This document shows, piece after piece, positions 5,968 to 21,548 of a stretch of DNA of 23,679 nucleotides. Numbering within the stretch: position 1 is the stretch's first letter; the number at the start of each line of letters is the position of its first letter. The position numbers and the translations under genes were made by a program. A model generated the notes under the pieces. It worked only from the letters and a program-made list of their open reading frames with translations, had not been told where the DNA came from and did no database searches. Location of the stretch: IMG/VR virus record IMGVR_UViG_2671180884_000031; one strand, 5' to 3'. This stretch comes from a virus (taxonomy: Duplodnaviria > Heunggongvirae > Uroviricota > Caudoviricetes).

Positions 5968-6021
5968 ACGGCGGTAGAGCAGTCACGGAGTAAAACTGAT
6001 ACTGCCAAACGTCACCAGAAA
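5968..6021 (-). ncRNA. dicF: DicF small regulatory RNA (ftsZ-targeting antisense sRNA)
   Basis: Minus strand reads TTTCTGGTGACGTTTGGCAGTATCAGTTTTACTCCGTGACTGCTCTACCGCCGTTTTT, near-identical to recalled K-12 DicF, ending in a GC stem plus T-run; lies ~170 bp upstream of dicB as in K-12. Confidence 0.8.
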
Positions 6022-9794: not shown

Positions 9795-9897
9795 TGTTAG
9801 GTATTTTAGACGTTACTAGATTAAAAAGCATTAGTTCAGGAGTGAATTGACATTCTCATTTTTCATGGCACAGGGTAGATCTGGCGTGGTTGTCCGC

Positions 9898-9918
9898 TTT
9901 GTGCCAGGAGCGGACGTT
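9898..9918. repeat. att-like repeat copy A (left boundary of cargo module 1)
   Basis: TGTGCCAGGAGCGGACGT (9900..9917) recurs exactly at 12452..12469 and in degenerate form at ~13998..14015. Confidence 0.5.
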
Positions 9919-10007
9919 GCTAATGGCATGATGTATGAACCAATGGAGAACCGATCATCTATACACATATAGATCCCTAACGAAAATATTGTTTTCACTA
10001 GCCCTGT

Positions 10008-10044
10008 AATGGAAGCGTTAATTTTATATTCTAACGCTTCCATT
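10008..10044. repeat. Perfect 13-bp inverted repeat (hairpin) downstream of the SDR gene
   Basis: AATGGAAGCGTTA (10008..10020), 11-nt loop, TAACGCTTCCATT (10032..10044); no flanking U-tract on either strand. Confidence 0.4.
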
Positions 10045-10096
10045 GAGCCTACCACTTTGGCAAAGCAATTCTTACACTTCAAAATAATGTGCTTTT

Positions 10097-10843
10097 TTAT
10101 TCAGCTAAATAACCGCCATCGATTGGATAAACGCCTCCGGTACAGAATGTAGAACTGTCTGACAGCAAGAACAATATGAAGTCTGCTATTTCCTGCATTT
10201 TTGCCATCCTTTTCATAGGGTGGCTATTTGCGAAACTACTTACAATATTTTCAGGGAACTCACTCATTCTTTGGGTTTGGACATAGCCCGGAGCGACTGC
10301 ATTGATTCGAATGCCTTGACATGCAAACTCTAGCGCTGCGGTTTGGGTTAAACCGATTATACCATGTTTAGCCACGGTGTAAGGTGCTAATCCAGGAATG
10401 CCAACCAGACCATTTACTGCAGATAAATTAACTATAGATCCACCAAACTTCATCATCTGGGGTATTTCATATTTTAGGCAGTGAAAAACGCCGCTCAATG
10501 AGGTAGCAATAACCTTATCCCAGTTTTCAACTGTCTGCTCTGTTATATTTTTACCATGTTCACCTGTTAAGCCTGCATTATTTACAGCATAATCAAGTCT
10601 GCCGAAATGTTTGATAACCTCATCTATCATTTGCCGTACTTGTTCGGGCTGTGACACATCACATCCGATCCCCATGGCTTGTTGTCCCTGTGAAGATAAT
10701 TGTTCCGCTTTTTGTTTAGCCTGTTCTGACGAGCGGGATACAATAACAACTTTTGCACCATGCTTATGTAATTGCTCTGCGACGGCCTCACCTATACCTG
10801 TAGTGCTTCCTGTTATAACGGCAATTTTATTCTGGAAATTCAT
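10097..10843 (-). CDS. SDR-family (short-chain dehydrogenase/reductase) oxidoreductase
   Basis: TGSTTGIG cofactor-binding motif, NNAG, catalytic YTVAKHG (YxxxK); start at ATG 10843 with a GGGGGTGG SD. Confidence 0.8.
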   Translation of the reverse strand: MNFQNKIAVITGSTTGIGEAVAEQLHKHGAKVVIVSRSSEQAKQKAEQLSSQGQQAMGIGCDVSQPEQVRQMIDEVIKHFGRLDYAVNNAGLTGEHGKNITEQTVENWDKVIATSLSGVFHCLKYEIPQMMKFGGSIVNLSAVNGLVGIPGLAPYTVAKHGIIGLTQTAALEFACQGIRINAVAPGYVQTQRMSEFPENIVSSFANSHPMKRMAKMQEIADFILFLLSDSSTFCTGGVYPIDGGYLAE

Positions 10844-10914
10844 AACCACCCCCTATGAAGTAGAATTGAGTCTTTCATCTGGGATAGTATACAAACCATC
10901 TGTGACAGTTTTTG

Positions 10915-11604
10915 TCAGTACTCTTTCCCCTCGCAGATCCCTTCTTTTATTCTCCATTTTTTCAATAAAATTGTCCTGCTTTCACTATAGTTGGAGTCAA
11001 GTTGCACAATATCTTCAATTTTGTCAGTTCTAAAATGACGAAAATCATTTCTCATCTCGCACCATGCAACCAAAAGCCAGCACGATTCCATGTATACCAA
11101 TCCGATGGGCCATATGACTCGTGAAGTGTAAGAATCTTTTTTATCACAATAATTTATTTTGATTTTCTTTCTTTTTTTTATAGCATTGCGAATGTCTTCA
11201 AAAAAAATCTCATTGTTTTCTGATGGACCGATCAGATAGGATTGACTCTCAATAAGATTTTTCAATTCACTGGGAATGACGGCGTGTATTTTCGCAAGCG
11301 CATTCTTTGCGGTAATTTTGAAATTATAATCTGTATTGTGCGATACCCAATTTAACCCAAGTGTAATAGCATTAATTTCTTCATGAGAAAGATTTAAGGG
11401 GGGCAAATGAAAGTCAGATTTAACAATATAACCAATTCCAGCACCACCTTCAATGCATACTCCTTGATGCTGCAGCGTTTTTATATCTCTGTAAAGGGAG
11501 CGTACACTTATTCCCAATCTTTCTGAGAGGATGGATGCTGTGATCGGATATCTTTGTGCCCTTAATATTTGTAGTAACTCGAGAAGTCTTTCTGTTCTAG
11601 TCAT
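10915..11604 (-). CDS. YafY-family transcriptional regulator (N-terminal HTH plus WYL-type ligand-binding domain)
   Basis: From the internal Met: MTRTERLLELLQILRAQRYPITASILSERLGISVRSLYRDIKTL..., a DeoR/YafY-type HTH followed by a WYL-like region; directly upstream of and co-oriented with the SDR gene. Confidence 0.6.
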   Translation of the reverse strand: MTRTERLLELLQILRAQRYPITASILSERLGISVRSLYRDIKTLQHQGVCIEGGAGIGYIVKSDFHLPPLNLSHEEINAITLGLNWVSHNTDYNFKITAKNALAKIHAVIPSELKNLIESQSYLIGPSENNEIFFEDIRNAIKKRKKIKINYCDKKDSYTSRVIWPIGLVYMESCWLLVAWCEMRNDFRHFRTDKIEDIVQLDSNYSESRTILLKKWRIKEGICEGKEY

Positions 11605-11822
11605 GTTGATAAATCCATTTTGAGGCGATTTCTTAAAGCATCTGTTAGATAAACATATTAGTACAAAGCAAGTGTACATGGCTAAGCTGAACTGCTACCG
11701 ATGATTAATACAGCGCTATGTTCGTAATGCGTACATAAGCGGTGATCATGAGTGTAAACATCCGCTTTTCGCTTATAAGGGACAACCATACTCAAATTTC
11801 CCACATTGCAGGAGATTTGAGT

Positions 11823-12425
11823 ATGAATACGTCACCGTGGAACAAAGACCGTATCATCGGCCAAAAAAGACCACTTCAGATATCTCATATCTGGGGGATC
11901 CGAATCCGGCTTGAACTGGAAGGTAAAACGCGCGATTTAGCTCTGTTCAATATGGCCCTGGACAGTAAGCTTCGAGGCTGTGATCTGGTCAAACTCAAAG
12001 TATCGGATGTGGCATATGGTAGTTCGGTTTCAAGCAGAGCAACGGTGTTGCAACAGAAAACCGGTAGCCCTGTGCAATTCGAGATAACCAAAGGGACAAG
12101 AGAAGCTGTTGCTGCATTGATAAAGCTTGGCAATTTGCACAGTAAAGACTTCTTGTTTCGGTCTCGGGTCGGAACTAACCAGCACATTTCAACCCGGCAA
12201 TACAACCGAATCTTTCATGGGTGGATAGAAAAACTTGGTCTCGAAGGTTCACTTTACAGCACACATTCAATGAGAAGAACAAAACCTTACCTGATCTACA
12301 AGAAAACCAAGAATCTCCGGGTGATCCAACTTCTGTTGGGTCATAAGAAACTGGAAAGCACAGTCCGTTATCTGGGCATTGAAGTCGATGATGCGTTAGA
12401 GATCTCTGAATCGATTGAAGTCTAA
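11823..12425 (+). CDS. Short tyrosine site-specific recombinase (~200 aa, phage-integrase family catalytic domain)
   Basis: AGGAG SD before ATG 11823; C-terminal HSMRRT...LLGHKKLESTVRYL carries the R/H-x-x-R ... Y catalytic signature. Confidence 0.65.
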   Translation: MNTSPWNKDRIIGQKRPLQISHIWGIRIRLELEGKTRDLALFNMALDSKLRGCDLVKLKVSDVAYGSSVSSRATVLQQKTGSPVQFEITKGTREAVAALIKLGNLHSKDFLFRSRVGTNQHISTRQYNRIFHGWIEKLGLEGSLYSTHSMRRTKPYLIYKKTKNLRVIQLLLGHKKLESTVRYLGIEVDDALEISESIEV

Positions 12426-12433
12426 GGTTGTCA

Positions 12434-12469
12434 GGGCTGCAACAGCAGCCCTGTGCCAGGAGCGGACGT
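12434..12469. repeat. att-like repeat copy B: hairpin GGGCTGC-AACA-GCAGCCC plus TGTGCCAGGAGCGGACGT core
   Basis: Begins 9 nt after the recombinase stop codon; hairpin plus a core identical to copy A. Confidence 0.5.
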
Positions 12470-12576
12470 CTAGTTCGCTGAACCACAAAAAGTCGTTTCT
12501 AGTTATATTACTGGCTCATTAGTATCTTTATGCGATAATATTTCATACAACCAAAATTATGATGAAGGGAGTTCAA

Positions 12577-13698
12577 ATGGCAATTACGGTCTATTCTCGT
12601 ACATTCAAAAAGGAATTGGACATGGTTCAATTGTTAAACCATTACTCATCAGATAACGCACTCAATTTCAGTGATTTCAAGGAATTTGTTGCCTTTGATG
12701 CAGAGTGCCCAATTTGCAATGTAAGCGGTGCGATTGTTGTTTCAGAAGGTTATTCGAAAAGAACAAATAAGATAGTCAGCCAATCTCATTTTGCGTTTAG
12801 AACAAAAGACGGAACTGATGCACACAAAGTATTTTGCGATCATTACAGTGGTGATGATAAGCAAATAGATTCATCAAGGGATGGTTTTATAAAATTCGGC
12901 ACCTCAGGTTCTGAGATTACAAGTATAATTCGCGAGCTTGTATGTAGAGGTATTGAACATGATGAGTTCAATCAGGAAGATATTCGAAACATGCGGCAAT
13001 GGTTTACAGAATTACGCCAGTCAGGCACTTTTTCTGTTAACTATAGCCCTCACATGATCAATCTAATAAGGGCCAGCATGTATTCCCGTAAGGGAGAAAG
13101 TAAATATATTGTAGATGAAGAGAGGAAAAATAAATCTTGGTTTGATATAAACGATGAAGTGTATCGTTCGTTAAGATTCAAATATCCATCATTGATGATC
13201 GACATGACTAATGAAAATAATTCTGTTTTCTATAATCTTGTGAATAGTACCACATTTACTAAACAAGCACATCGATTAGTAGCACGAGATCGAGGTTATC
13301 AGGTTTATGATAGAAGGTTGCTTAAAGAAAAATATGAAGCAACGATAAGAGTTGCACAAAAAATAACCAGGCATCACGAATTTCTTTTTAGGAAAATCAG
13401 GGGTATATCCGCTGTTAAAAAAAACAACCCCCTTTTGGCTGTATCTGCCTTGCTTCTTTTTGTCTCGGACTGGAATGAAACAACTGCAATCAACAAATTC
13501 ATCAAATTGTGTGGTGTAGGGAAATCTAAAAATAATGATGAGGGGAATGTAATTGGCTTAAATCCCTTTATTCATTACGATGTCTGGAATGTTATTCATC
13601 AACTTAAGGATTTAATGGTTACACTTCCAGACTTCTCAAATCTTGATGAAGAATTTGACAGAGAAAAATCCAGATTAATTGAACTTTACAAGCTCTAA
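12577..13698 (+). CDS. Hypothetical protein, 373 aa, AT-rich cargo gene; candidate accessory/anti-phage function
   Basis: GAAGGGAG SD 5 nt before ATG 12577; N-terminal CPIC ... HKVFCDH cluster suggests a metal-binding site; no family recognised by eye. Confidence 0.7.
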   Translation: MAITVYSRTFKKELDMVQLLNHYSSDNALNFSDFKEFVAFDAECPICNVSGAIVVSEGYSKRTNKIVSQSHFAFRTKDGTDAHKVFCDHYSGDDKQIDSSRDGFIKFGTSGSEITSIIRELVCRGIEHDEFNQEDIRNMRQWFTELRQSGTFSVNYSPHMINLIRASMYSRKGESKYIVDEERKNKSWFDINDEVYRSLRFKYPSLMIDMTNENNSVFYNLVNSTTFTKQAHRLVARDRGYQVYDRRLLKEKYEATIRVAQKITRHHEFLFRKIRGISAVKKNNPLLAVSALLLFVSDWNETTAINKFIKLCGVGKSKNNDEGNVIGLNPFIHYDVWNVIHQLKDLMVTLPDFSNLDEEFDREKSRLIELYKL

Positions 13699-13740
13699 CA
13701 TAAACTAGCAGGCTGCGTATACAGTCTGCTAATTTTCATA

Positions 13741-13970
13741 GTAAAGACTTCATGCTTCAGTCTCGAGTTGGAGCTATCCGTCACACATCACCCAGGCAAT
13801 TCAACCGAAATTTTTCATGGGGGGTAGAGAAGTTTTGTCTCGAAGATTTGCTTTACAGCATACTAATCATTGAACCTCTGTTGAACCATAAGAAACTGGC
13901 AAGCACAATCCGTTGCTTGGGCATTGAATTCGACGATGCGTCGTATAGCTCTGACTTGAACAAAACATAA
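13741..13970 (+). pseudogene. Degenerate duplicate of the tyrosine recombinase 3' end (remnant)
   Basis: About 75-80% nucleotide identity to 12142..12425 with an internal deletion; translation ...SRVGAIRHTSPRQFNRNF...LLNHKKLASTIRCLGIEFDDA parallels the recombinase C-terminus. Confidence 0.6.
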
Positions 13971-13978
13971 GGTTTTTA

Positions 13979-14015
13979 GGGCTGCAACAGCACCTCTGTG
14001 TCATAGGCGGAAGTT
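13979..14015. repeat. att-like repeat copy C (degenerate)
   Basis: GGGCTGCAACAGCACCTCTGTGTCATAGGCGGAAGT parallels copy B in the same position relative to the recombinase remnant. Confidence 0.45.
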
Positions 14016-14311
14016 AACAAACATTAAAATCTCTAAATCTGTAGGGATCAGACTCCTTCTATAAAAGGATACTGTTCATATCCTTAGTTGTATATAGGTG
14101 TGTTTAGAGTATTAGGATGCTAGTTTTGAAAATTAATTTTTTAAACATATTGAATTTTTTAAGAATTGGGAATAGTGTATAGCTTTGTCATGGCGGATTT
14201 TTTCTCTTCAAGTATTTATTTGAACACTACTTCTTGCACCTGCAAGGTTACAATATCGTGTAAATTTGTTCACAAAGACATAGATTATAATTTTTACTTA
14301 AAGGAAATTCA

Positions 14312-15565
14312 ATGTCAAAAAATCTCCCGGTTTTATTAAGCTCGCCATCAACAACTAATTTTCCTGCAACAGTTAATACTGAAATAGAATTCCTTTCGCA
14401 AGCTAGAAAGTTGTTAGATTCTGGCTTCCCTGATCATGCTCTTTTAGATATATGGAATGCATCCATTCATAATCTTAGGCGGCGAATTGAGGCTTATGGT
14501 TTAGACTTATTCCTTTCCGCAATAAAGGATGATAGTGGTCGTAAAAAATATGATAAAGATGGTGAAACAATAAACGAGAGATGGTCAGGTGTAGATGATT
14601 TAGTGCTAATAAGTGGAGCCACCAAATTAGGGGTTCTGCATAAGAAAGCTGGAAAATCATTAGAAATGATCAATTGGATGAGAAACCATGCCTCTCCAGC
14701 CCATGCAAGTGATAGTAAAGTAGAGTCTGAGGATGTGTTTGCTTTGGCTCTTATGCTCCAGAAGAATTTATTCGAATCTGATATGCCAGACCCTGGACAT
14801 TCGCCATCTGGATTATTTGAACCCATAAAAAAATCTGAACTATCAATTGAGAGCATAGACTTACTTAAAGATCAAATAAGAGCATTTAAGCAAGCTGATA
14901 TAAGAATAACATTTGGATTTTTATTGGATTTAATAACTAAGGGGGAAAATCCTGCTTATGTTAATGCTAGCAAGTTGTTTGAACAAGCATGGGAAAGATC
15001 TAATGATGACCTTAAAAAAACAGCGGGGGAAAGATATCACTCATTTATGCTGGAGCCCGAATCGGATACAAGTGAGGATAAAGGAGCAAAAATAAGAATT
15101 TTAGAGACTTTAGTAAAAGTTAATGGTGTGAAATTTATACCTGATGCTGCTAGGGCAAGTTTATACAGACATGCGGTTAAACAGCTAGCTAAAGCTAAGG
15201 ATACATCTTACGGCTGGAATGATGAAGAAAGAGCAGCCAAGGCACTTATACAATTTGGACCTCATGTTCCATCTATTGCTTTTGAAGATGTATATCAAGA
15301 AATACTTACTGTTTGGGTGGGGAATTACTGGGGAAGATCTGATGCACATTTAGTACTTCAACCATTTTTAGATGTGTTAAATAGTAATCAATTGATGGCT
15401 CTCTCACGGTTGTTCGTGGAGAATGAAAGAGCAAATTCAGAACTGGTGTCATCAAGGCCCAAAAGAAGAGCAATAGAATTACTTGAGATAATAAAAAATA
15501 ATCTAACAATTCAAGCAAGCATTGATGAAATTGATAGGATTATTTCTGAAATTGATAAAATGTAA
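14312..15565 (+). CDS. Hypothetical protein, 417 aa, with HEPN-like R-x6-H motif; candidate abortive-infection/defence protein
   Basis: AAGGAAA SD before ATG 14312; helical N-terminal region with WMRNHASPAH (R-x6-H) resembling the HEPN active-site motif; AT-rich; own terminator downstream. Confidence 0.7.
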   Translation: MSKNLPVLLSSPSTTNFPATVNTEIEFLSQARKLLDSGFPDHALLDIWNASIHNLRRRIEAYGLDLFLSAIKDDSGRKKYDKDGETINERWSGVDDLVLISGATKLGVLHKKAGKSLEMINWMRNHASPAHASDSKVESEDVFALALMLQKNLFESDMPDPGHSPSGLFEPIKKSELSIESIDLLKDQIRAFKQADIRITFGFLLDLITKGENPAYVNASKLFEQAWERSNDDLKKTAGERYHSFMLEPESDTSEDKGAKIRILETLVKVNGVKFIPDAARASLYRHAVKQLAKAKDTSYGWNDEERAAKALIQFGPHVPSIAFEDVYQEILTVWVGNYWGRSDAHLVLQPFLDVLNSNQLMALSRLFVENERANSELVSSRPKRRAIELLEIIKNNLTIQASIDEIDRIISEIDKM

Positions 15566-15577
15566 TTTATTTGCAAT

Positions 15578-15610
15578 TAAGCCATGCTTTTTAGGTGGCT
15601 TATTTTTTTT
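15578..15610 (+). terminator. Rho-independent terminator after the 417-aa gene
   Basis: AAGCCA ... TGGCTT stem followed by an 8-T run, 13 nt after the stop codon. Confidence 0.55.
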
Positions 15611-15882
15611 GAATCTACTACTTATATTGATATTAGCAATGTAATTGCTAAAGTATTCCTAGCCCACTATTCATCTAAATATGGTTGTCGAAAGGCCCGC
15701 TTCTCGCTCAAAGCGGACTAGAAGGTTAGCTTGTGTCGGACTTTGCGTATTAAATGACTAGTGGTTGAGCCCCATTTCCACAGAAAAAATCAGAGAAACT
15801 ATACCCAATAGTTGTATTGAATCACTGACGAGACAGCCTCATATTCATCAGGACTGGTGTACGTCCAATACAGGAGGTTGTG

Positions 15883-15972
15883 GTGCTGGTTCTCAAATGT
15901 GCGCTGGCTATTACGGCTGTAATGGCGATTTATTGTCTTGCTATTGTTCTTATGGATCGCCTTTCTGACTGA
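15883..15972 (+). CDS. Candidate small hydrophobic peptide (29 aa, GTG start), type-I-toxin-like
   Basis: Canonical AGGAGG SD (15872..15877), 5-nt spacer, GTG; product (M)LVLKCALAITAVMAIYCLAIVLMDRLSD is a single predicted TM helix. Overlaps a 67-aa Cys/Gly-rich ORF in another frame that is judged spurious. Confidence 0.3.
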   Translation: MLVLKCALAITAVMAIYCLAIVLMDRLSD

Positions 15973-16183
15973 TTTCACATTGGCGAGGTAACGGTAGTTA
16001 AGTAGAATGGCTGCGGGTGCTTGAGGCTATCTGCCTCGGGCATGAACACCAACGGCAGATAGAGAAAAGCCCCAGTTAACATTACGCGTCCTGCAAGACG
16101 CTTAACATTAATCTGAGGCCAATTTCATGCTAGACATATGTAGGTTAGCCTCTTACGTGCCGAAAGGCAAGGAGAAGCAGGCT

Positions 16184-16339
16184 ATGAAGCAGCAAAAGGC
16201 GATGTTAATCGCCCTGATCGTCATCTGTTTAACCGTCATAGTGACGGCACTGGTAACGAGGAAAGACCTCTGCGAGGTACGAATCCGAACCGGCCAGACG
16301 GAGGTCGCTGTCTTCACAGCTTACGAACCTGAGGAGTAA
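16184..16339 (+). CDS. hokD: Hok-family small membrane toxin HokD (RelF)
   Basis: MKQQKAMLIALIVICLTVIVTALVTRKDLCEVRIRTGQTEVAVFTAYEPEE matches recalled HokD; AAGGAGAA SD; an in-frame upstream ATG at 16127 could give an extended form. Confidence 0.8.
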   Translation: MKQQKAMLIALIVICLTVIVTALVTRKDLCEVRIRTGQTEVAVFTAYEPEE

Positions 16340-17933: not shown

Positions 17934-18243
17934 TTTAGGGGACAGAAAAACTCCTTAATACTGATAACCTGGTGCACCATACACACGTTCCTGGAGAAAA
18001 CTACTTTTTTGATAGGGTTGAAGGTGGCTGGATGTCTAAAATAAACATTGCTTCATATGTTCAACTATGAGTTAATGACTGTGTCGGTTTGAAGAACAGA
18101 CGATATACGAAGTAGTTTACTAAAGCAGTTCTCATTTCAGGTGTTATTCACTTATTCCTTCTTTGAGTCTCTCCAATTAAGTACGAAGTCGTTTCTGTTA
18201 TGCAAACCATTTATGCCGAAAGGCTCAAGTTAAGGAATGTAGA

Positions 18244-18459
18244 ATGTCAAATAAAATGACTGGTTTAGTAAAATGGTTTAACGCTGATAAAGGTTTCGGC
18301 TTTATTTCTCCTGTTGATGGTAGTAAAGATGTGTTTGTGCATTTTTCTGCGATTCAGAATGATAATTATCGAACCTTATTTGAAGGTCAAAAGGTTACCT
18401 TCTCTATAGAGAGTGGTGCTAAAGGTCCTGCAGCAGCAAATGTCATCATTACTGATTAA
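18244..18459 (+). CDS. cspB: Cold-shock protein CspB-like (71 aa)
   Basis: [53 protein letters not shown]...; cold-shock-domain RNP motifs; long 5' UTR typical of csp genes. Confidence 0.8.
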
Positions 18460-18740
18460 AATTCATCGCTCGTCTGTATACGATAACGAAGAAGGCTGAT
18501 GCCTGAGTAGAGATACGGACAGAGTAGTGAATATTGGATCTCTTTAATAAAAAGTAAGGAGGTCCAATACATGAAACAATGGCCAGCATATTTGGCAAAA
18601 TCTTAATCAGGAAAAGTATGCTAACCATTGTGGTGAAGTGCAGGTTTGCTGCATGAATAGTTTCACAGCAGAAGCTAACTGCTGGCATCGCAAAACAAAG
18701 TGCGTAAGTGGATGACTCCCACAAAAAGCACCACAATCTC

Positions 18741-20767: not shown

Positions 20768-21129
20768 GGTAATATTAAATCGGAACATTTACATCGCGGA
20801 ATGTAAAATTTAAATAAAAAGGACTCTTCCATGAGCCAAAATTCCTGAAATCTTAAGGGTAAGATAAAAGGTCTTAATCAGAATGACACGTTTTATTAAT
20901 AAATAAAGCTATTCTTTCATTGCTGTGTTTTTCTTTACAAAAGTAATCCTTGCTATGGGTGGTTAATCATGCGTTAATGGTGTTCTGGTTTGTTACAAAT
21001 TTATCTGAAGCAGTCATTGTTATAATTTTATTATTTGTACCTCTTGAGATTTCCTTGTTGGTTTTTCTCTCTGATATTTTTTTTCGGACCATTCTGCCCA
21101 AGGGCTAATTTCTTCAAAAGGTAATAATT

Positions 21130-21342
21130 ATGTCTAACAAAATGACTGGTTTAGTAAAATGGTTTAACCCTGAAAAAGGTTTTGGTTTCATCACGCCGAA
21201 AGATGGCAGCAAAGATGTGTTTGTCCATTTCTCAGCAATTCAGAGCAACGATTTCAAAACATTAACTGAGAATCAGGAAGTTGAATTTGGTATTGAGAAC
21301 GGACCTAAAGGTCCTGCCGCTGTTCATGTAGTGGCGCTTTGA
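21130..21342 (+). CDS. cspI: Cold-shock protein CspI (70 aa)
   Basis: [70 protein letters not shown] matches recalled CspI. Confidence 0.85.
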
Positions 21343-21548
21343 GGTAGACAATATTACAAACCATATTCACTTTAGATGCCCGTGTTGTCATGGTTCCCAG
21401 TATAGAACATCATCTTTTGATGTTTCTGACATGAATCCTTTCGGGGCAAAATGTATCTTTTGTAAATCAATGATGATTACATTTGATAATATTTCACAAT
21501 ACTTAAATGCTAGCCGTCTGTCGTTGGATTTAAAAAAGTGAAAATGAA

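Follow-up and report, generated by a model that had tools for sequence, protein, structure and literature searches.

The locus considered here raises the question of what a single gene encoding the 373-amino-acid (aa) protein WP_001018849 does inside a lambdoid prophage of Escherichia coli. The gene lies in a stretch of 23,679 nucleotides (nt) from a virus (Duplodnaviria; Heunggongvirae; Uroviricota; Caudoviricetes), IMG/VR record IMGVR_UViG_2671180884_000031, and this whole stretch is called the window below. A preliminary description, made from the sequence alone, had proposed it as a candidate defence gene. We found that the family of WP_001018849 is recurrently adjacent to the Gabija system, and the answer that we favour, although at slightly less than an even chance, is that WP_001018849 is a defence-related protein of a new family, autonomous in E. 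coli and linked to Gabija elsewhere.

The gene and its family

WP_001018849 is a real gene and far beyond a chance open reading frame (ORF), because at least 128 homologues were recovered, the ratio of nonsynonymous to synonymous substitution rates (dN/dS) is 0.11-0.14 against relatives that are 91-99% identical, and the gene is intact in all 18 complete E. coli genomes that hold a full-length copy. It is under purifying selection and is rare in this species, with 21 carriers among 5426 complete genomes. The ORF that contains it spans 12559-13698 in the ORF listing; the start with biological support, giving 373 aa, is the ATG at 12577, since the RefSeq annotation agrees and every homologue opens with MAIT or MPIT. 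The guanine-plus-cytosine (GC) content of the gene is 35.5%, compared with 42.7% for the window and 45-50% for the flanking prophage DNA, and scans for Rfam families and tRNAs gave no RNA gene near it. The strong AT-richness and the Shine-Dalgarno sequence reported in the preliminary description were both recovered (Table 1); its residue numbers for the Cys/His cluster (about 51-54 and 90-96) are shifted by about seven, as counting had begun at an upstream ATG.

The homologues recovered by a word-indexed search are all of about 375 aa, all annotated as hypothetical, and none has a Pfam domain. An exhaustive profile search among 1.84 billion representative proteins gave 212 clusters at 50% identity, all with the same architecture of about 375 aa and with neither fused nor additional domains. 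Members come from Alpha-, Beta- and Gammaproteobacteria, Cyanobacteria and one flavobacterium. The preliminary description could place the protein in no family, which agrees with its RefSeq label of hypothetical protein and with the lack of a Pfam, NCBIfam or PADLOC match; no housekeeping or phage-structural family matched it either. In PADLOC-DB v2.0.0 no family reached E<=1 for WP_001018849, and 43 family members gave only scattered single-member matches (E 0.008 or weaker). The sole match in PHROGs is phrog_12525, of unknown function. The abortive-infection families of Pfam (Abi_2, AbiEi/Eii, Abi_C and others) matched neither WP_001018849 nor the 43 members, and a sub-threshold similarity of 12 of these 43 members to DUF7516 (residues 4-47) is uninformative. 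The literature searched held nothing relevant on the family, its PHROG, the homologue of phage SSU5 or DUF7516.

Conservation was counted in a 112-sequence family alignment, and profile tests were also made on the 43-member alignment. The most conserved feature of the family is a Cys/His cluster, which in WP_001018849 reads C44-P-I-C47 and H83-K-V-F-C87-D-H89 in the 373-aa numbering. Both cysteines of the first half and H83 occur in 112 of 112 members and C87 in 111, while the position of H89 is occupied by F or Y in most. The conserved motif, as judged from the alignment, is CxxC-(35)-HxxxC and not HxxxCxH, so that four of the residues singled out by the preliminary description stand and the final His does not. 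Because the CxxC...HxxxC ligand set (C44, C47, H83, C87) is invariant or nearly so, a putative zinc-binding module, as had already been proposed, is strongly suggested. Like C2HC zinc-knuckle and treble-clef modules, the family has a CxxC knuckle, an HxxxC about 35 residues on and four near-invariant ligands; unlike them, it reaches significance with no zinc-finger profile, the best being Zn_ribbon_20 (E 0.11) and zf-C2H2_2 (E 0.22), with one member each. Also invariant are E13, Q18, R140, G323, N324, G327, N329 and P330, and D41 is present in 111 of the 112 members. Five of these residues belong to the GNxxGxNPF loop motif, which doubled as a pattern in the locus scan, so that part of its invariance in those loci follows from how they were selected; it is invariant as well in an independent alignment set (A2).

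Predicted structure and rejected identities

An AlphaFold2 model, built from a 43-sequence alignment, has a predicted local distance difference test score (pLDDT) of 89.8 and a predicted template modelling score (pTM) of 0.86. According to this model, a beta-rich N-terminal domain (about 1-110, weakest at 91-110) would hold the Cys/His residues, followed by a predicted UBA-like three-helix region (about 113-168) and a predicted C-terminal all-helical domain (about 181-371). A Foldseek comparison, which had been suggested together with the defence hypothesis, was run on the model against PDB and BFVD and identified no family (best E about 1, no significant match), and a profile search of PDB sequences gave no chain below E 0.1. 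The Pfam families TAP_C and TetR_C gave sub-threshold matches at residues of about 100-160. WP_001018849 is without a known domain or fold, and the resources consulted describe neither the family nor its fold.

Several identities were considered and rejected. A Walker A nucleoside triphosphatase (NTPase) motif is absent from the sequence, as previously noted. HNH and His-Me finger nucleases have a beta-beta-alpha-metal motif with a catalytic His and an Asn or His, often framed by CxxC pairs; for this class, no Pfam match was obtained with the 43 members, only one CxxC is present and the second half of the cluster is HxxxC. The order and spacing of the motifs do not fit a zinc site of the cytidine deaminase kind, no conserved His follows R137 or R140 as the HEPN motif Rx4-6H would demand, and the DD at 92-93, considered as part of a terpene-synthase DDxxD, sits in a variable loop.

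The structure also bears on the idea of a toxic effector, in which the protein would belong to an abortive-infection or toxin-antitoxin-like module and have a lethal (for instance pore-forming) helical domain that stays silent until triggered. The central helix is hydrophobic and highly conserved (LLAxSALLLF, residues 288-295), Foldseek returned very weak matches to colicin, Bcl-2 and alpha-pore-forming toxin folds, and regulators of the XRE-HTH+M78 type are neighbours in three lineages. However, these fold matches are insignificant (E 1-7, template modelling score <=0.1), and no 19-residue window reaches the transmembrane hydrophobicity threshold, the maximum around the central helix being 1.16, which is too low for a transmembrane or pore-forming helix. 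There is, moreover, no conserved antitoxin-like partner and the gene is stably maintained alone, and we regard a toxic effector as highly improbable.

Association with Gabija

Gabija consists of GajA, an OLD-family ABC-type ATPase with a TOPRIM nuclease, and GajB, a UvrD-like superfamily 1 helicase with a Walker A motif. The genomic surroundings of homologues were collected by fetching 80 loci, calling their ORFs and clustering the neighbours; statements on neighbours refer to 96 loci, and lineages are those obtained by dereplication at 90% identity (n = 64). No partner gene is common to all 96 loci, in keeping with the single-gene accessory function first suggested. The commonest neighbours are GajA and GajB: GajA is found within 4-5 kb of a homologue in 12-13 of the 64 lineages (about 20%), mostly with GajB too, and the lineages concerned belong to the Alpha-, Beta- and Gammaproteobacteria. 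PADLOC confirmed both identifications, with E values from 1e-192 to 1e-279 for GajA and from 1e-126 to 1e-250 for GajB. According to neighbour clustering and the best-matching PADLOC model, the linked Gabija proteins can be divided into at least four separate groups. The layouts met most often have the homologue (X) immediately next to the pair, as GajA-GajB-X (gaps of 29-214 nt), X-GajA-GajB (73-118 nt) or in convergent orientation (35 nt), and in a few loci other genes intervene. Since Gabija is present in about 15% of genomes (PMC10568477), we estimate that adjacency by chance would, for a random gene, be far below 1%.

The family cannot be a core component of Gabija, because with its 212 clusters it is far rarer. 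Like Gabija, it occurs as cargo on mobile elements and in defence islands; unlike Gabija, WP_001018849 has no ATPase, TOPRIM or helicase motif. The PADLOC models of GajA and GajB matched neither WP_001018849 nor the 43 members, there is no Walker A, and the model combines a beta-rich domain bearing the putative zinc site with all-alpha parts. Among those tested, no ORF of the window matched a GajA or GajB model. GajC, published for type II Gabija, is a MazF-like protein that takes the place of GajA and is unrelated to the WP_001018849 family (PMC13069673).

Other neighbours and carriers

Among 147 other immediate neighbours, PADLOC matches were obtained to a CBASS cyclase, LmuB, an Argonaute-associated restriction endonuclease and mad3, as well as to PDC-S02, PDC-S15 (FRG domain), Olokun and capP-like XRE-M78 regulators. 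TIR_2 and KAP NTPase domains (Pfam) are encoded close to the homologue of one Vibrio locus, and an Abi family protein and DUF4365 were found near others from Pfam matches or record annotation. This neighbourhood is classical defence-island company. The designation as a candidate defence gene gains from it and from Gabija lying within 5 kb in about 20% of the lineages, which is evidence of association only. None of the observations favours abortive infection in particular.

Relatives that are 27-44% identical are carried by IncF and IncX plasmids, and the copy on pOU1115 of Salmonella Dublin adjoins an Abi family gene. About 190 SSU5-like phage-plasmids of Klebsiella, Salmonella and Enterobacter hold a homologue (27-29% identical), which in Salmonella phage SSU5 itself is gene SSU5_107; in SSU5-like phage-plasmids of E. 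coli only the N-terminal 41% of the query aligns. A gene for an XRE-HTH+M78 peptidase, with a PADLOC capP match, stands beside the homologue in three lineages. In three loci the homologue is directly downstream of such an XRE-HTH+Peptidase_M78 gene (ImmA/IrrE-type, capP-like), within a P4-like satellite that has a Toprim primase and Ogr/Delta genes, and in two further loci an XRE-HTH+M78-type gene is the neighbour on the opposite strand. In Pseudomonas viridiflava (two loci, with umuD too) and Acinetobacter (three loci), umuC directly abuts the homologue; this adjacency in two unrelated lineages may be a coincidence or a link to DNA-damage functions.

In the main rival explanation, the family would be a modulator or counter-defence protein that binds or regulates GajA/GajB: copies beside Gabija would give the element carrying that system self-immunity or a brake, and copies on Gabija-free prophages (as here), phage-plasmids and conjugative plasmids would shield the incoming element from the Gabija of its host. 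Such a role would unify the Gabija-adjacent copies with the solitary ones in early-type regions of phage-plasmids and plasmids, which consist of many small same-strand ORFs; one solitary copy is beside an AcrVA2-like gene. The linkage recurs with several subtypes of Gabija and is specific to it, not to defence genes at large, and the lack of a recognisable enzymatic motif fits a binder. The complex of GajAB with the anti-Gabija protein Gad1 has been solved and is in the PDB, yet no PDB chain matched WP_001018849 in sequence or fold. In size Gad1 (295 aa) and Gad2 (400 aa) are comparable to WP_001018849, and like it they are orphans encoded by prophages; for Gad2 a nucleotidyltransferase (NTase) domain is predicted (10.1101/2023.05.01.538930). 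WP_001018849 shows no NTase-type Pfam match and its secondary structure is unlike an alpha/beta NTase core, Gad2 having been compared by description only. Gad1 and Gad2 are functionally linked to Gabija and have proteobacterial homologues; the family differs from them in being co-oriented with Gabija operons and not carried by the attacking phage. An inhibitor encoded 29-214 nt from GajB or GajA in the same orientation, and probably co-transcribed, would be expressed together with its target, which fits a modulator poorly. The family is also rare in IMG/VR, where a pattern scan confirmed only 11 viral contigs. We therefore hold a modulator to be rather unlikely.

A module bounded by recombinase sites

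The features of the insert that carries WP_001018849 are listed in Table 1. It contains five related 24-bp sites with the core GTCYGC-N12-GCRGAC in two spacer orientations, and matches to this core are 10-100 times commoner than in shuffled sequence. The preliminary description had seen att-like repeats around the gene and a recombinase remnant beside it; the repeats correspond to sites C and D, which form the module boundaries, and besides the remnant a complete 200-aa recombinase gene is present upstream. A duplicated stretch at 13719-14014 comprises the remnant and the site after it.

Table 1. Positions of the gene, its signals and the surrounding recombinase features in the window
Feature	Position	Strand	Remarks
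Site A, GGTTGTCCGCTTTGTGCCAGGAGCGGAC	9888..9915	+	Left end of the 5.8-kb cargo array in the prophage slot
Site B	11761..11787	minus (inverted)	
Tyrosine recombinase WP_024178309, 200 aa, intact	11823..12425	+	Between inverted sites B and C
Site C	12426..12469	+	Left module boundary; GGTTGTC, hairpin AGGGCTGC-AACA-GCAGCCCT, then TGTGCCAGGAGCGGACGT
Shine-Dalgarno-like sequence GAAGGGAG	12564..12571	+	5 nt before the ATG of WP_001018849; read directly
WP_001018849.1 coding sequence, 373 aa	12577..13698	+	RefSeq label "hypothetical protein"
Codons of C44-P-I-C47	12706..12717	+	First half of the putative zinc site
Codons of H83-K-V-F-C87	12823..12837	+	Second half of the putative zinc site
Codons of G323-N-V-I-G-L-N-P-F331	13543..13569	+	GNxxGxNPF loop motif, predicted C-terminal helical domain; invariant
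Terminator-like hairpin, 10 pairs, then ATTTTC	13706..13731	+	Starts 8 nt past the stop of WP_001018849
Recombinase remnant, decayed 3' half, no intact frame	13719..13963	+	74-77% identical to 12120-12425; 54-nt gap
Site D	13971..14014	+	Degenerate copy of site C; right module boundary
hyp2, WP_000042049, 417 aa	14312..15565	+	Neighbouring cargo; co-travels in E. coli and Serratia, not in the 91%-identical variant
Site E, core GCCCGCTTCTCGCTCAAAGCGGAC	15683..15718	+	Inverted spacer type; right end of the cargo array

The gene moves as a module bounded by these sites, since the same block is found behind different flanks with a breakpoint inside a 24-bp site. The left breakpoint of homology is at 12452, within site C, and the three flanks that precede it are the recombinase gene in the window, a DUF2254 gene in an integrative and conjugative element (ICE) of E. 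coli, and unrelated prophage DNA in the case of a 91%-identical variant. The block of the WP_001018849 gene, the recombinase remnant and hyp2 is 99% identical in Serratia montpellierensis, and the E. coli ICE also holds the WP_001018849 block at 99% identity, always from the same 24-bp site, which bears out the horizontal acquisition first proposed from composition and context.

The recombinase WP_024178309 has a Phage_integrase domain only, without an N-terminal arm-binding domain. Its best NCBIfam similarities are to Xer-type recombinases and FimB/E-type invertases, far under the cut-offs; it scored 28-47 bits against XerC/XerD (cut-offs about 330) and 13-14 bits against integron-integrase models (cut-offs 265-435). 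Every 200-aa recombinase gene examined, in the window and on three plasmids, is flanked by inverted sites. On these plasmids the 24-bp sites bracket cargo, and they are also found on the ICE and on prophages. Elsewhere, modules of the same recombinase system contain BetT, transport and metabolic genes, glycosyl hydrolases, and restriction or HNH genes. The literature searched gave no description of the 24-bp site or of such a cassette system, and the sites and the 200-aa recombinase appear to be an undescribed cassette-like system.

Integron cassettes have as hallmarks an IntI-type integrase, an imperfectly palindromic attC site and a usually promoterless ORF. The modules described here resemble integron cassettes and the pdif modules of Acinetobacter: short recombinase sites with inverted-repeat arms enclose the cargo, one and the same module is seen behind different left flanks, and arrays occur with sites in both orientations. 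By contrast, GTCYGC-N12-GCRGAC is neither attC-like nor dif-like, and, unlike integron cassettes, the modules bring their own expression signals, the gene having its own terminator. Together with the low scores against integron-integrase models, these differences led us to reject an integron gene cassette.

With the gene so closely tied to recombinase sites, it could be thought to serve the element itself, outside immunity, as an accessory or directionality factor of the recombinase or as a UmuDC-linked helper in DNA metabolism. Every E. coli and Serratia copy is indeed followed by half a recombinase gene and lies between the sites of that recombinase; in one Vibrio locus a 198-aa recombinase is encoded 2.5 kb away, and in Pseudomonas and Acinetobacter umuC abuts the homologue. 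However, only 7 of the 96 loci have recombinase fragments close to the gene, the recombinase modules bear unrelated cargo, and the umuC adjacency is confined to two lineages. In addition, 883 of the 5426 complete E. coli genomes matched a 4.1-kb query that included the recombinase gene, mostly through that gene, and only 21 hold the gene for WP_001018849. A role in element maintenance or regulation appears quite improbable.

Setting in the prophage

The window represents a Qin-like lambdoid prophage adjoining rspAB, and the E. coli strains 2012EL-2448, 2018-166 and STEC2018-553 carry the 4.1 kb around WP_001018849 on their chromosomes at 100% identity. The prophage runs from integrase, exonuclease, dicB/DicF, dicA/dicC and replication genes to a DUF977 gene, followed by the insert and then by hokD/sok, rem, ydfU, a Q-like antiterminator, csp genes and lysis genes, so that WP_001018849 lies in the insert between replication and hokD. 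The slot between the DUF977 gene and hokD/sok (about 9800-16100) is a variable accessory slot in lambdoid prophages: one prophage (L017) retains sites A and E with a different gene between them, for a 195-aa hypothetical protein, and in another (L018) the slot holds the epoxyqueuosine reductase gene queH, with site A partial and site E unrecognisable. Known prophage RNAs at 16015-16189, 5969-6020, 18083-18475 and 20984-21369 are the sok of hokD, DicF and two cspA-type thermoregulator leaders.

The same array holds a further cargo module on the minus strand (10097-11679), with an HTH+WYL regulator and then an SDR-family oxidoreductase; WYL regulators often control defence operons, whereas the gene that accompanies this one encodes a dehydrogenase. 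The neighbouring cargo protein WP_000042049 has no Pfam, NCBIfam or PADLOC match and 435 homologues. The 120 of these that were listed, from Proteobacteria, Lentisphaerota and Cyanobium, are nearly all exactly 417 aa and 57-94% identical, a conservation unusually strong for orphan cargo.

Prophages are known to carry single-gene defences, of which P2 Old/Tin, BstA and lambda Rex-type exclusion genes are examples. With these and other morons WP_001018849 shares its position as an AT-rich insert in a lambdoid accessory slot with its own ribosome-binding site and terminator. It differs in having no homology to any of them and in arriving by a recombinase-site module, which contrasts with illegitimate or homologous exchange.

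Proposed role

From these observations we infer zinc binding, a defence function and each step of the following model. WP_001018849 would be a soluble, cytoplasmic, probably zinc-binding protein, and its family a small one that travels on mobile elements as self-contained cargo and most likely has a role in conflicts with phages or mobile elements, on the side of defence. The E. coli copy would act alone, and many homologues in Alpha-, Beta- and Gammaproteobacteria would act alongside the adjacent GajA/GajB. The putative C2HC zinc domain, in which the polar residues E13, Q18, D41 and Q69 are also conserved, may recognise a nucleic-acid or protein cue. The response may be transmitted or executed by the two helical parts, namely the UBA-like region of three helices and the C-terminal domain, with R140 and the GNxxGxNPF loop. 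That response would probably be binding or sequestration, and not known nuclease or NTPase chemistry.

A number of points weigh against a defence-related protein. WP_001018849 shows none of the catalytic motifs by which known effector classes are recognised, and Pfam, NCBIfam and PADLOC assign no family to it alone or to the 43 alignment members. A scan of the plus strand upstream of the gene for a sigma-70 promoter gave nothing qualifying, CTGGCT-17-GATAAT near 12511-12539, picked by eye, being a weak candidate only. The identity between the copies linked to Gabija and the protein of E. coli is no more than 27-31%, and among the homologues examined the Enterobacterales branch, WP_001018849 included, is never beside Gabija. 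In SSU5-like phage-plasmids, and likewise in a Ralstonia plasmid, homologues are embedded in rows of small ORFs, a setting that we judge more typical of early or anti-defence genes. Finally, because other modules of the system carry transport, metabolic and restriction or HNH genes, membership of a cassette is neutral on function and the recombinase-module context alone does not imply defence. Among the alternatives to a defence-related protein, element maintenance and a toxic effector are less supported than a modulator of Gabija.

A bolder form of the defence reading is possible, though on the unlikely side. In this form Gabija would have in the family a partner not recognised so far, namely a sensor or guard that depends on zinc, has a novel fold and extends or gates the activity of GajAB. 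On prophages, phage-plasmids and plasmids the family would also have become an autonomous module, either immune or counter-immune, and in the Enterobacterales it would be spread by an undescribed integron-like system of 24-bp sites and a 200-aa recombinase. Gabija has been described as a two-gene system, and a recurrent orphan beside its divergent subtypes would point to an overlooked layer. If the association is functional, this layer would be a sensor, guard, regulator or antidote that also travels alone on prophages and plasmids. WP_001018849 would then add a protein fold without a solved relative, and the vehicle based on the 24-bp site may help to explain how accessory genes move between types of element in the Enterobacterales.

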